Shown: in pieces, positions 44,201 to 53,200 of the stretch
Layout of the letters: every line of letters begins with the position of its first letter
Position numbering within the stretch: the first letter of the stretch is position 1
From: a plasmid
Assembly: GCF_054482595.1 (NCBI RefSeq)
Contig: NZ_JBTHVH010000004.1
Reading direction: 5' to 3' (one strand)
DNA: 64,000 bases
Made by a program: the position numbers

Positions 44201-47200
44201 GGCTCTACCGCTGGTGACGTGTGGAAGCTTGGATTAGAGGCAACGGGGCAGTATGACTTCACCTCTTCGGGCGTAAGTGATGCAAATGGTATTGATAAGG
44301 GCCTAATATATATTTACAGGCAGGACGGTAGCCTCTACAGCACTACACAGATGCAGTATGACGTATCCGGCCAAAAGATGTACCACACTTACTCTAAGAA
44401 TTCAGTTAAGGGAACCGGAATACCAGACAGCAACCTGGATGAAGACTTTACTGCAAAAGTTGTTATCTTCGATAACGCAGGTAATAGCCGAACGCTGCCA
44501 ACTCAAAAATTTCGCTACGACAACACGCTGGGTGAGATGACACTGTGGGCCGTTCATGATCCAAATACGTCTTCCAGCGTCGTACCCGGGGTTTCTAATT
44601 ATCCGGCTTACAAAGCCGGTATGGTCGTTAACGAAAACCCTATTCGATTAGTCTACCGGATCCCAAAATCTAACTACCGTGCTTATTCAGAAGGTGGGCT
44701 TCAGTTCATCAATCAATATTCCGCCCCCAAAGAGATAGCTGTAGACAGCACTTATGCTTATGTTGAAATGACTCTTCCCTATGGCTCAATTAATGGGGAT
44801 ATGGCTCGTATGGCGAACTTTGGCCAGTGGGGAGGGTATTATCCGTCATACAGCCTCGTTCTAAACCCATCTGCAAACCAAACGCCTGCATTTGCGGGTA
44901 CCTGGGTAGATTTCCTCGATGATAAGGGGAACTGGGTTAAGTGGAAGGATTTTGAGAGTGTGGCTTCATCACGACTGCCAATTAAAATTTCCCGACTTCG
45001 TTTTAACGTTGAAGCCCGGCCCTTTGCACAGGAGATCGGCGGTAAGGCGACCTGCACCATTCCGGCAGGAAAAACCTCGTGTGAAGCGCCTGAGACGTTT
45101 GATATGGCCTTGGGTACCCAGGGCTACAATAGAATCCTTTACTTCGTTCGCAGCATCAGCAATCCCATTTTGCGGTCTGAGCAATGGATTATGACACGCT
45201 GGAACAATAAACAACTGCCGGTAATAAACTCGATATCATATGACGAGACTAACAAGCAGCTGGATGTACTGGCGTCACTTGAAGGCGATGGTAACTGGTT
45301 CGACTCGGTCTCATTGAGGGAATTTTATCTTTCCGATAAGAACACCGGTACCCGGATGTCACCAACAGGCGTAATCAAATCTCGTATCTCAGGTAACTAC
45401 ACGATTGCTTATGATTTATCCCGTCAGTCTGAAGGAAAATACAACGTTGAGGTCAACATCAGGGACTTCTTCCAGAACCAGACCAATAAAACTTTCGGAG
45501 AAATTGCTCTGGATAACACTCCTCCGACAGTGGCCATAACATTCGACGGAAAGCCGGTAAAAGACGATACGGTAGTGTACGGCCTGGAGAACCTCAGGAT
45601 CGCTCTGGCAGATAATCTGACAACCCCGAGGATAACCCGTCTTCAGCTCGTAGGTGGCCCCACAGCTGATAACGTTGAGCTTACGTGGTCACCGGCAGGC
45701 AAAGATACATACATGCCTGAGTATCCGAGGCTGTTCCCAAATTTCGAACCATCTGAAAATTATTCAATTAGCGTAACAGTTGCCGATAGTCAGTCGAATA
45801 CCAAAACCTATACTCAGAAGTTCAGTTATCTACCGAATAACCTTGTGCAGTTACATAATCTACGCACATTGTCGGTCAGTTCACCTCTCAAAACGACAGA
45901 TGGCGTACCACTTGCGTACCTGTCCACTAACGTTCTGCGTAAGACAAATGGAGAAATTGCTAAAGGGGTCCAGAACGCAACGCTGACTGTGCGGAAGGAT
46001 GCAGCCTTCGGTATTAAATTTAATGGGGCACAGGCGGCTCCAGGCGAGTCAGTTGAGGTGCAAATAGATATGGGCCAGGGGGATAATCTTCTGTTACCCG
46101 TTTATCCTTCCGAAAATGGGAAAGTTGGCACCTCAGAATTCATGATTCAGATCGACGAGTTGAAGTAACTACCCGGAGCCGACAGTAAAACTGACGGCTT
46201 CAATTTTACTGCCCTCCTCGACTCCGATCAGCCAGTACGTCTTCAGAGATTCGCAAGGAAGAACCGAAAGAAAAGTTACTTTAATCGTACGTTTCCAGCG
46301 ATGCTTTCAAAAGACAATGCATACTCGTTGATTACGACAATGGGAGTGAGTGTCGAACCCCTTGAGTAAGGATACCTGGTAAATATACAGCCCCGGGGAT
46401 TCTCTTCCTTCAACCGGGGATGACAACGGGAGTGAGTCCGGCAACTCACACCTGTTGTCACTTCTCTGACATATCGTCATACGAGCTTACTCAAGCGCAT
46501 CCACAAAGATGGGATCGTTTTGAATCTAAACTGGTACTGGTTAGCCAGTCACTTGCATCTACTCCCCCGTCGATATTTAAGTGACAATTGTAGTGATCTG
46601 CAATACTGGTGTCTCAGAAACACTGACGACGGTAGAGACTCAATACCCTAACCCCTGACAACAGAAGTGAGCTTAGAGGTGTTACGCTGCTGTCACCTAA
46701 TGCTTGGGAATTGCCTGACTCACAACCATTGTCATCCGGAGCTACTGATTAACGTTGAACCGCTGGACTTTAATGACAGTGGTAGTGATGGATAGGCTCA
46801 TTTCCATTGTCGTCATTTTATCGGACAAGCCTCTTCGTCCTACAGGTTTAAGCTGACAATGGTAGTGATTGGATGATCTCACTACTGTTGTCACTCAGTT
46901 CTTTGAGCGGACCCTTCCCTCGGTTGGTCGGCATTAACAACGGTAGTGACTCGATTGGCTCACTGCCATTGTCATCGTGTAAATGACGTACCTTATCAGC
47001 TCAGCTGAAAGCAATGACAACGGTAGTGACTCTAATTGCTCACTGCCATTGTCGTCGTGTCTATTGAGAGCCTTATCAGTGCACCTGAAAAGCAATGACA
47101 ACGGTAGTGATTCTAATGGCTCACTACCGTTGTCACCGTGTGTATTGAGAGGATGGTCCACTTAACTGGACGTATATGACAATGGTAGTGACTTTAATAG

Positions 47201-50200: not shown

Positions 50201-53200
50201 GCAGAGAAGATATGTGGTGAAATGACCATGGTAGTGAGTCTAATCACTACCATGGTCCGCAGTAAGCGTTACTTACGCAATGAACGTCGGACTGATTTGC
50301 AACAACATGGGCTACGGCGCATCAGAAGGCGGCCGTTGTGCTTCAGCAAAACAGCCCTGCTTTATTTTAATTCTTCAATGTTAATCATGAACTCAGATCT
50401 GCCAGTAAGGCCGGATACAGCAGGGAAAATAGGAAAGCTACGGCTGTCCCCGAGCCCCAAATCCAGTTGAAGCTCTTTGCTTTCACCTGGCATCGCAGAA
50501 ACGCCATTTACAGTCACGCCGAATGCAGCGTCCTTACGGACAGTAAGCACTGCGTCCTGAAGCCCTGTAGCGATTGAACCATCCTTTTTACGCAGCTGGC
50601 TGGCATACAGAACAGCCAGAGCAGTATTGTCAGATGTTTTGAGAGAAGCATTGACAGCTAAGGTTTTCAGATTCTCTAGCCTGACGAGATTGTTTGGAAG
50701 GTAGTTAAATTCGACTGAGCTTTCTTTAACGTTGTTCATCTCATCTTTGGCCTGAACTGTGAGAGTGTATGTTTCGCCTTCATTAAGAGACGGAAAGATC
50801 TTGGGATAATTAGGTGCATACAGGTTGTTTCCCAGATTCACCCAAGACAATTCCACCGCATCAGAAACAGGGCCACCGCGAAGAGTCATACGGCTTAAGG
50901 ATGGTTTAGTTAGAGCATCGGTGAGCTGTATACGGACGTTCTCCAGCCCATATACTGTTACGTTTTTGCTGATCGGTTTTCCTTCGTAGCTAATACTTAC
51001 AGATGGTGCTGTATTATCAACGACAACTGTTTGATAAGGGAGGTTACCGGTATTGTTGAATGTATCTTGGGCATTAATCACCACGTTATAACTGCCTTCT
51101 GGTACCTCTTTCATGTTGAACTCATACGTGTAGTTCCCAGACGCCATATTTCTACCTGTTTGTTTGCCGGTTACGCTTATTTCTGCGTTGTTACGGTTTT
51201 TATCTGACAACCAAACTCGATTTACATAAACATGGTCGAAATATGAACCATCTCCAGGTTGATTCACGTAAACCTGGAGAATGTTGGTGGTTTCATTGTA
51301 ATCAAATCCAGTGACGGAGGGACCCAGTGTATGCCAGGCTATATTCTCCCATATAGGGGCAAAGAAGGTTGCTTCGGTGGTTGACCTTACTTCATAGCCA
51401 CTATGAAGATAACCGGTAGTGCCATTTATAATATCCTGGGGCAAAGAGACGGTACAGGTTGTTGAGCCAGCTGGAATACTGCATGTTGCTCCGCCAGTGA
51501 TTTTTTGATCATATGGCCTGGCCTGTACATTGAATCGGATATTAGTAAGTTTTATAGGCATATCAGATGCCTTGAACAGGTTCCAGTTTACGCTGTTGAA
51601 CCATGTTCCATCAGCCTTTTGTCGTTCTATGGGTGAACTTCCCCAAGCCGGACTCTTTACAGAGGCAGGATCCCAGTTGAGCCAGCTGGCATACTGACCA
51701 AGATCTCCTCCAGACCATTGATATGTATTCACAGGTCTATAGTAGTTTCCATCTAAGGCACCCTGTGGCAGCTTAACTTCCACGTAGACATAGGTGGCAT
51801 CTTCGGAAAGGACCTGTACTCCGCCATAGTTATTGGTAATGCTCATGCCACCATTTCGATATGGCTTCCAGTTAGTTCTTGGGATACGTATAACCAACTT
51901 GTAGGGGTTTTCCAGCACTGTAAGGCCTCGTTTAAACGGGACGTATCCCGAAGAAATGCCGGGTACAACACTGGTGCTTACACGTGAGTCATGAACTGCA
52001 AATGGCGTAAATTCTCCCATTTGATCGTCATATAAAAACCGCTGGGGAGGAATGTTAAGCGTATTTCCTGCCAGGTCCGTAACGATGAAATTGAAGGTGA
52101 ATTCTTCATCAAGATCACTTGAGGGCATGCCAGCCTGGGTGTTCATATCTTTAATCCACGGATAGAACGCACGTTTATTGGCTGTGTCATAACTCAGGTT
52201 ATTGTCGGAGACCACAGAACCATTACTTCGTTTAATGACAAGACGGATCTTGTCAATTCCACTAGCATCCTCAATACCGTCTGCAAATATAGAAAACTGG
52301 CCACTACCGCCTCGGCCCAACTCCCAAAGTGGCCCAGAAAGTACCATGTCGTAACCTGCGTTTTGACTCGGATAAATACTCTTATAGCGTGGAGGAGTTG
52401 TATCAACGATGAAATGATAAGTAGATGTGCTCACTACAGTCTGGCGAATATCCAGAGTTTCATTGACTACAGTAAAGGTCCCTTCTCCGAGCGCCGGTAG
52501 AACCATATCCTTTCCATAGTATTCTGTTCCATCGGCAGCAACGATACGTAGACTGGCCCCCTGAATCTCCAGACAACCAATATCACTTATTTAAGTGATA
52601 GTCTTAATACTAGTTTTTAGACTAGTCATTGGAGAGCAGATGATTGATGTCTTAGGACCGGAGAAACGCAGACGGCGTACTACACAGGAAAAGATCGCTA
52701 TTGTTCAGCAGAGTTTTGAACCGGGAATGACAGTCTCCCTTGTTGCCCGGCAACACGGTGTGGCAGCCAGCCAGTTATTTCTCTGGCGCAAGCAATACCA
52801 GGAGGGAAGTCTTACTGCTGTGGCCGCAGGAGAACAGGTCGTTCCTGCCTCTGAACTTGCTGCCGCCATGAAGCAGATTAAAGAACTCCAGCGCCTGCTC
52901 GGCAAAAAAACGATGGAAAATGAACTCCTTAAAGAAGCCGTTGAATACGGGCGTGCAAAAAAGTGGATAGCGCACGCGCCCTTATTGCCCGGGGATGGGG
53001 AGTAAGCTTAGTCAGCCGTTGTCTCCGGGTGTCGCGTGCGCAGTTGCACGTCATTCTCAGACGAACCGATGACTGGAAAGATGGTCGCCGCAGCCGTCAC
53101 TCAGATGATACGGATGTGCTTCTCCGTATACACCATGTTATCGGAGAGCTGCCCACATATGGTTATCGTCGGGTATGGGCGCTGCTTCGCAGACAGGCCG

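Follow-up and report, generated by a model that had tools for sequence, protein, structure and literature searches.

The replicons of P1 and of the RepFIB group are among the closest described systems to the locus considered here, which occupies positions 46336–50257 of a 64,000-nucleotide stretch of DNA (the window) from the plasmid contig NZ_JBTHVH010000004.1 (RefSeq assembly GCF_054482595.1). This locus is the RepHI2 (RepHI2A; PlasmidFinder IncHI2A) theta replicon of IncHI2 plasmids, an iteron-controlled member of the P1 RepA/RepFIB family (Pfam Rep_3 superfamily), and with high probability its downstream array of repeats would, by homology, serve copy control and incompatibility. In P1, the annotated oriR runs from an 18-bp DnaA site through five Dam sites and five incC iterons at 21-bp spacing to repA, and a second iteron set, incA, follows straight after the gene. 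P1 incA is a classical copy-control and incompatibility locus, with nine iterons in 285 bp, three facing one way and then six the other, and no tight pairs among them. The replicons of the RepFIB group (F, P307, pO157, IncFIB(K) and IncFIB(S)) and of the SSU5/pHCM2 type encode RepA proteins that are 50–57% identical to RepHI2, and most of them have a duplicated upstream module. Their downstream sets comprise 4–14 sites in 0.2–1.1 kb and are mostly arranged in orientation blocks, unlike the RepHI2 array. The SSU5 iteron has a GTAGTGA block in common with the RepHI2 iteron. In RepFIB, the downstream EFGHIJ iterons alone displace FIB plasmids, whereas the upstream set does not (PMC11983097).

The RepHI2 replicon, its family and its long repeats are already known, having been in print since 2001–2004. 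RepHI2 is one of the two replicons of IncHI2 plasmids and the target of IncHI2A typing. For R478, the IncHI2 reference plasmid, the sections of the literature that deal with its repeats describe twelve 80–81-bp iterons, and the corresponding part of a review (PMC4980987, citing Page et al. 2001) gives iterons of up to 76 bp. The account of the replicon in PMC8490738 (citing Page 2001 and Gilmour 2004) places the 80–81-bp 'iterons' about 500 bp from repHI2 and states that cloning suggested functional activity. In these passages of the two secondary sources (PMC8490738, PMC4980987), the 80-bp repeat is taken as the iteron, and an inverted pair of a short iteron goes unmentioned. That the published 'long iterons' resolve into inverted pairs of an ordinary iteron is possibly the only new point of the present analysis, and a modest one; Page et al. 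2001 or Gilmour et al. 2004 may already describe the pair substructure.

The product encoded at 48166–49254 on the minus strand is identical to WP_000159529.1, annotated as 'IncHI-type plasmid replication initiator protein RepHI2', and the replicon was typed as IncHI2A. The 4.1-kb region was found at 99% identity or more (best place per record) in 480 PLSDB plasmid records, and at least 80% of it was covered in 1,021 PLSDB records, mostly of conjugative plasmids, from Escherichia, Salmonella, Enterobacter, Citrobacter and Klebsiella. Over 4.2 kb, the same replicon in an R478-like Serratia plasmid (L004) differs from the window by two single-nucleotide polymorphisms and exactly one extra 81-bp unit, the window having one unit fewer than the R478 type. 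The tandem block of the window ends 489 bp from the repA stop codon, fitting the distance of about 500 bp reported for R478. Set beside the passage on the replicon in PMC8490738, the window has its 80–81-bp units (46855–47677) beyond the repA stop codon, while short iterons adjoin the start of the gene. An earlier note on this DNA had placed a repA gene at 48166–49254 and read the locus as a RepFIB/P1-type replicon. The gene is present there, and homology searches bear out the family assignment; what the note had not recognized is that the replicon is the catalogued RepHI2 (RepHI2A) of IncHI2 plasmids.

Searching the window for TCACTACYRTTGTC with up to two mismatches, we detected 45 matches, all of them within 46336–50257 and none in the other ~60 kb, against a chance expectation of 1.06 matches on average and five at most in dinucleotide-preserving shuffles. 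Together with two weaker origin iterons, the locus thus holds about 47 copies of one 14–15-bp site. Ten of these are direct repeats with 21-bp phasing, distributed over two paralogous origin-like modules, and about 35 lie downstream of repA. On alignment, the half-sites of the downstream array carry the same 14–15-bp core consensus as the upstream iterons, so the earlier note was right that both sets share a motif, and the order of origin iterons, repA and a second iteron set, which it had described as the P1/RepFIB layout, agrees with P1 and the eight other replicons examined. The elements of the locus, in window coordinates, are as follows.

46336–46811, no strand: distal, degenerate part of the array, with irregular solo sites and the pairs 46422/46446 and 46775/46798.
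46855–47677, no strand: regular tandem array, 11 anchors at 80–81-bp spacing, with 10 complete inverted pairs and a partial last unit.
47817–48090, no strand: repA-proximal part of the array, with the pairs 47817/47839 (weak), 47885/47909 and 48055/48077.
48166–49254, minus strand: repHI2 (repA), iteron-binding replication initiator of 362 aa (open reading frame, identity to WP_000159529.1, homology, AlphaFold2 model).
49291–49319, minus strand: promoter-like element GTGACA-17-TACTAT, 37 bp upstream of the repA ATG (consensus scan).
49326–49463, no strand: repA-proximal origin flank, with GATC sites at 49441, 49446 and 49460, a DnaA-like box at 49429–49437 and a 65% A+T stretch.
49348–49356, within that flank: perfect DnaA box TTATGCACA, accompanied by a GATC pair at 49326 and 49338.
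49474–49571, minus strand: proximal origin iterons, five direct repeats at 21-bp spacing reading GACAAYRGTAGTGA in the repA direction, the third degenerate.
49482–49510, minus strand: second promoter-like match, TTGACA-17-GACAAT, inside the last two proximal iterons (the best-scoring match, 10/12 to consensus).
49575–49632, no strand: GC-rich stretch with GATC sites at 49575, 49619 and 49629, between the DnaA boxes and the iterons.
49671–49688, minus strand: tandem DnaA boxes TTATCCCCA and TTTTCCACA at the outer end of module 1 (consensus scan; conserved in the related replicon L005).
49897–50110, minus strand: origin module 2, five iterons (49897–49995) followed by a paralogous GATC-containing block and a DnaA-like box.
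50224–50257, no strand: isolated perfect palindrome of the iteron core, with 14-bp arms at 50224–50237 and 50244–50257 and a 6-bp spacer, about 970 bp upstream of repA.

Judged by sequence, RepHI2 is plainly homologous to P1 RepA and to the RepA proteins of RepFIB replicons. It is 41.3% identical to P1 RepA over residues 30–297 (E 3e-61), from which it differs by an extra C-terminal tail of ~65 aa, 55% identical to the RepA of SSU5-type phage-plasmids (E 9e-99) and 50–57% identical to RepFIB-type initiators from E. coli, Klebsiella, Salmonella and Pantoea. RepHI2 alone gave no Pfam match at E ≤ 0.001 and no match to an NCBIfam hidden Markov model, and PDB sequence searches, with RepHI2 and with a profile of 17 sequences, returned nothing significant. 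Because these direct searches were empty, family membership was shown through homologues and a fold model. The 17-sequence family alignment has a mean column identity of 63%, and the Pfam WH1 domain Rep3_N was matched by 14 of its members and the WH2 domain Rep3_C by 10 (E ≤ 0.1). The AlphaFold2 model of RepHI2 has a mean predicted local distance difference test score of 64, with block means of 75–91 over residues 71–200. Its best structure matches were domains 2–3 of RctB (E 1.7e-6), the RepE dimer-operator complex 2z9o (E 1.6e-4) and a Rep WH1 domain, the match to TrfA being weaker.

The array downstream of repA contains 35 sites with at most two mismatches in 1.75 kb (46336–48090), among which 14 close inverted pairs are arranged head to head. 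The distance from start to start within a pair is exactly 24 bp, corresponding to a 10-bp spacer, in 12 of the 14, with 23 bp and 22 bp in one pair each. The regular part, delimited by site spacing, extends over ~0.82 kb (46855–47677) and holds 11 units; Tandem Repeats Finder reported a period of 81 bp with 9.3 copies and 76% matches at 46930–47677. A 243-bp super-period from the same program was discarded, as the identity of units at lag 3 (75.4%) is no higher than at lag 1 (76.3%) or lag 2 (74.1%). The earlier note had described an array of roughly 1.7 kb in which the motif occurs as inverted pairs inside tandem units of about 81 bp. The pairs, the tandem units and the overall extent of the sites were all found, but the tandem arrangement is regular over only ~0.8 kb, the flanks being degenerate and irregular.

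Each unit consists of the inverted pair GACAAYGGTAGTGA-N10-TCACTACCRTTGTC and a linker of 43 bp. Alignment of ten units resolved a 15-bp left arm TGACAAYGGTAGTGA, a spacer of 9–10 bp, a 15-bp right arm CTCACTRCCRTTGTC and a linker of ~42 bp. When units are compared two by two, identity averages 0.905 in each arm, 0.553 in the spacer and 0.617 in the linker. Given that the arms are this similar while whole units are only 60–84% identical to one another, the amplification is old, and selection has kept the arms and the length of the spacer.

Inverted pairs of this kind could also act through their secondary structure, by folding into hairpins or cruciforms in RNA or single-stranded DNA that would work, for instance, in transcription termination or in single-strand initiation. 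As single-stranded DNA, each pair does form a stable fold, with −13 to −16 kcal/mol and z about −7 to −9, and the one nearest the repA stop codon (48055/48077, 75 bp past it) gives a terminator-like match with a 12-bp stem. However, similarity between arms is no greater within a pair than across pairs, with 19 differences against 18.5 expected in the tandem units (P = 0.70) and 30 against 33.7 over all pairs (P = 0.08), which indicates that arm complementarity is not under selection. The arms are instead conserved towards the iteron consensus, which recurs as direct repeats at the origin, and each arm is held to that consensus independently, as expected of two protein-binding sites. The only Rfam hit in 45500–50800 was a chance match to mir-71 below threshold, and none was credible. 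On the arm-complementarity test, the hairpin reading was rejected, and we consider a structural role of the array very improbable; the pair nearest the stop codon may, besides binding RepA, still terminate repA transcription.

We compared eleven replicons, namely the RepHI2 clade and eight others (P1, SSU5, three RepFIB types, Pantoea, pESI and Morganella), leaving out the Xenorhabdus locus L016, in which the upstream part is too short. Two lineages have RepA proteins 85–88% identical to RepHI2, the pKPC_CAV1321-244 type (L002/L005) and L003, and both show the same iteron core, the same two upstream clusters and 28–30 downstream sites over 1.4–1.5 kb. Their arrays could not be aligned with that of the window by BLAST, and the tandem unit is not kept. 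The head-to-head polarity is nevertheless found in 8 of 8 close site pairs in L005 and in 8 of 11 in L003, mostly at 24 ± 1 bp from start to start. Since these lineages keep the pairs without the tandem unit or a shared linker, the conserved functional unit would be the inverted pair, that is, two RepHI2 protomers head to head, rather than the 81-bp repeat, which looks like an old tandem amplification of one pair and its linker in the IncHI2 lineage.

Outside the RepHI2 clade, the eight replicons have 4–14 downstream sites, mainly in a block of one orientation followed by a block of the opposite one, with tight inverted pairs limited to one or two, close to the stop codon. In Pantoea and Morganella, a tight inverted pair is among the first sites past the repA stop codons. 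Regular tight pairs are confined to the RepHI2 clade among the eleven replicons, in keeping with the remark in the earlier note that this downstream organization is unusual for the family.

The head-to-head arrangement also bears on the form of the initiator that is bound. The pairs might be operator-type sites for RepHI2 dimers that do not initiate replication, as in RepE, pi and the RepA proteins of pPS10 and pSC101, in which case control would operate mainly by sequestration of dimers or by dimer-bridged complexes. Such a dimer sink, one of the roles put forward in the earlier note, overlaps with an incA-like role and differs from it in the protein form bound. The fixed polarity and 10-bp spacer, with most pairs at exactly 24 bp, and the retention of this polarity and a similar spacing in two other lineages speak for dimer binding, and the modelled fold resembles the RepE dimer-operator complex. 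The operators of RepE (F), pi (R6K) and RepA (pPS10, pSC101), which serve autorepression, are similar in principle, being iteron-derived inverted repeats bound by their own initiator. Their arms, however, are partial iterons that occur once or twice over the rep promoter, whereas here about 15 pairs with the full core lie downstream of the gene, and no inverted pair was found at either of the two repA promoter candidates. In addition, P1 RepA dimers do not bind DNA, and half-site centres 24 bp apart are equally compatible with two independent monomers. On balance, we regard a dimer-specific sink as rather unlikely. As for the regulatory unit itself, it is a tentative possibility that a 2:1 RepHI2-DNA complex assembles head to head on a pair of full iterons whose spacer is fixed at 10 bp, about 15 such pairs making up a dedicated control array. 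To our knowledge, this binding mode has not been described for P1 or RepFIB initiators.

Within IncHI2 plasmids, the number of units, counted by one rule, is 11 in the window, 12 in the R478-like L004 and 13 in L013 (pXJW9B277-HI2-N, NZ_CP068042.1). The latter combines two extra units with an insertion sequence (IS) that removed the outermost sites. Apart from unit number, the array is otherwise frozen within IncHI2, judging from these sequences. Identity classes of 93% and 96% in the BLAST results were rejected as a sign of divergence, having turned out in L004 and L013 to be alignment artefacts of one or two extra units. Which of the units are duplicated differs from plasmid to plasmid (window 47502–47620; L004 3572–3771; L013 1506–1611 and 2073–2259). 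In L013 (1–1100), the insertion is an ISKpn18, the array sites lost correspond roughly to window 46336–46600, and the plasmid evidently persists; it also carries IncN and the second IncHI2 replicon.

Upstream of repA, the proximal iterons start at 49474, 49495, 49516, 49537 and 49558, in 21-bp steps, and the distal ones at 49897, 49919, 49940, 49961 and 49982, in steps of 21–22 bp, all in the same orientation. The two clusters of five direct repeats that had been noticed earlier were therefore recovered, each with one degenerate member (49516, with four mismatches, and 49919, with three). The proximal iterons are base-for-base identical in two related lineages, and the degenerate repeat at 49516 is kept in both of the related lineages aligned for this cluster. 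The GC-rich GATC stretch is conserved between the paralogous modules and in L005, while the boxes and GATC sites of the repA-proximal flank are invariant across three lineages. Overall, all elements of module 1 are invariant in two related lineages in which the repA region is ~76% identical in nucleotides. Module 1 matches the annotated layout of P1 oriR, and, by analogy with P1, the proximal module would be the origin. As in P1, a homologous initiator is accompanied by tandem DnaA boxes, GATC sites and five 21-bp iterons upstream and by a second set straight after repA, but P1 has one origin module against two here, and the iteron sequences are unrelated.

Module 2 is a diverged paralogue of module 1, and the orthologous modules of the pKPC_CAV1321-244 type align better with their IncHI2 counterparts than the paralogues do with each other. 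A doubled origin module is also present in L005 and L003 and, with the clusters 150–340 bp apart, in SSU5, Pantoea, pESI, IncFIB(K) and Morganella. The duplication is thus an old trait of the family, one that P1 does not have. Of the two promoter candidates, that at 49291–49319 has both hexamers conserved in L005 and L003 and is likely the repA promoter. The position of the other, at 49482–49510, would resemble that of P1 PrepA inside incC. The GC skew across the window showed no informative switch at the origin, since the window is a mosaic with resistance regions.

The isolated palindrome at 50224–50257 is perfect and carries the same motif, as previously noted, with coordinates that differ by one base from those given then. 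One iteron palindrome of this kind stands alone in each lineage, at about 1 kb from the replicon core. In the CAV1321-type replicons (L005 2642–2681; L002 8438–8477; L003 8283–8322), it is found on the far side of the array, 71 bp ahead of an HNH gene, with a 12-bp spacer and the opposite polarity (TTGTC ends inward), whereas the IncHI2 palindrome lies beyond the origin and has a 6-bp spacer. The isolated palindrome may be a looping anchor or an operator of the neighbouring gene. A gene for a Dam-family adenine methyltransferase is located at window 59667–60440 on the plus strand, ~10 kb from the GATC-rich origin, and a link between the two is possible.

The array might itself be part of the origin or an enhancer of initiation instead of a negative control element. 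The secondary literature, in its passages on this replicon, treats the 80–81-bp repeats as the replicon iterons (PMC8490738, PMC4980987). Nevertheless, the DnaA boxes, the GATC clusters and the helically phased direct iterons are found upstream of repA and not in the array; in one natural plasmid, an IS has eliminated the distal sites, and the number of units varies from plasmid to plasmid. Furthermore, the downstream set is a negative element in the homologous P1 replicon, as it is in RepFIB (PMC11983097). An origin function of the array is, in our view, improbable.

By analogy with P1 incA, the role of the array is most likely negative control of copy number and incompatibility. RepHI2 monomers together with DnaA would open the origin at the proximal module, as homology with P1 and RepFIB suggests. 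The downstream array, as the counterpart of P1 incA and of the RepFIB EFGHIJ repeats, would bind RepHI2 and pair with the origin iterons in cis and in trans, leading to handcuffing along with some titration. Initiation would in this way be switched off after plasmid replication, plasmids of 150–370 kb would be held at low copy number, and the array would act as an incompatibility determinant of IncHI2. A comparable use of two site classes is seen on chromosome 2 of Vibrio cholerae, where RctB binds 12-mers and regulatory 39-mers, the latter restraining initiation by handcuffing, although there is no detectable sequence relationship and the 39-mers are few and are not inverted pairs of the 12-mer. 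Large arrays of long repeats near a rep gene also occur in pALWED1.1 (ten 83–84-bp repeats) and in IncN (28 tandem 37-bp repeats), but their sequences and Rep proteins are unrelated to those of the RepHI2 replicon.

The earlier note had also suggested a centromere-like site. Long arrays of protein-binding sites are typical of the partition sites sopC and parC, and the array could in principle bind a partition adaptor, or RepA in the role of one, although nothing in this locus points specifically to such a role. The repeats are the replicon's own iterons and occupy the place of incA in P1. No ParA, ParB, ParM or ParR gene is annotated within ~8 kb, the neighbours being genes for Ig-like domain and hypothetical proteins, and parAB and parMR, dedicated partition loci, are among the markers of the IncHI2 backbone (PMC5955447), which counts against the suggestion. 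We consider a partition function extremely improbable.

Several observations weigh against control of copy number and incompatibility in the manner of P1 incA. Relative to the control loci of the replicons compared from outside the RepHI2 clade, the array is 3–8 times larger, and, since it is both larger and differently organized, its mode of action may differ, for example through binding of dimers. The best conserved promoter candidate (49291–49319) is not overlapped by an iteron, so autorepression in the style of P1 is not evident. IncHI2 plasmids contain a second replicon, which clouds the share of RepHI2 in vivo. Finally, a linker block, ATTGAGAGG(A/C)T, at window 47040–47660 is 80–90% conserved among the IncHI2 units. 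This block was tried as a second protein-binding motif and set aside, given that no 8-mer from the DNA between sites is common to the window array and the arrays of the related lineages; the block may be left over from the unit that was amplified, or may represent a second binding site.

A 202-aa open reading frame inside the array (47194–47802, minus strand), open in the repA direction, was judged spurious and very probably does not represent a gene. Its openness follows from the repeat period, 81 bp being 27 codons (27 × 3); the related arrays are not alignable, and no family match was obtained. Its counterpart in L004 (3264–3920) is annotated as 'hypothetical protein' in AP028550.

The replicon is bracketed by two paralogous genes for Ig-like domain proteins, at 43748–46168 (plus strand) and 50362–54154 (minus strand), with their 3' ends facing the replicon; the paralogues are 41% identical over 715 aa. 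The right-hand gene, encoding 818 aa in other plasmids that have it intact, is interrupted by a 1,331-bp element of the IS3 family (52549–53879) with a 5-bp target duplication; its size and the duplication fit IS2. In L002 (2388–3254) and L003 (2385–3251), a second, divergently oriented gene of the Rep3_N family (288 aa) is found ~1.7 kb upstream of repA, and in the IncHI2 window an Ig-like gene stands in its place. At a larger scale, segments of 58–63% G+C (window 12001–16000 and 30001–42000) break the backbone of ~45% G+C and presumably represent acquired resistance or transposon DNA. In matching plasmids, the left flank carries annotated TnAs3 and IS26, and the annotations of matches in other IncHI2 plasmids include floR, oqxAB and cmlA1.

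The widespread IncHI2 plasmids rank among the main vehicles of mcr-1, mcr-9, carbapenemase genes and genes for heavy-metal resistance in Salmonella, E. coli and Enterobacter. The variation in unit number among them (11, 12 or 13) may serve as a marker or may modulate copy number. If the 2:1 complex on the inverted pair is real, copy control in these plasmids may use cooperative, dimer-like occupancy, possibly with formation of a nucleoprotein filament, rather than the classical handcuffing of monomer-bound iterons. The inverted iteron pair as the unit of control would offer a defined target, and the cloned array could cure or displace IncHI2 plasmids, as the downstream iterons do in the case of RepFIB.

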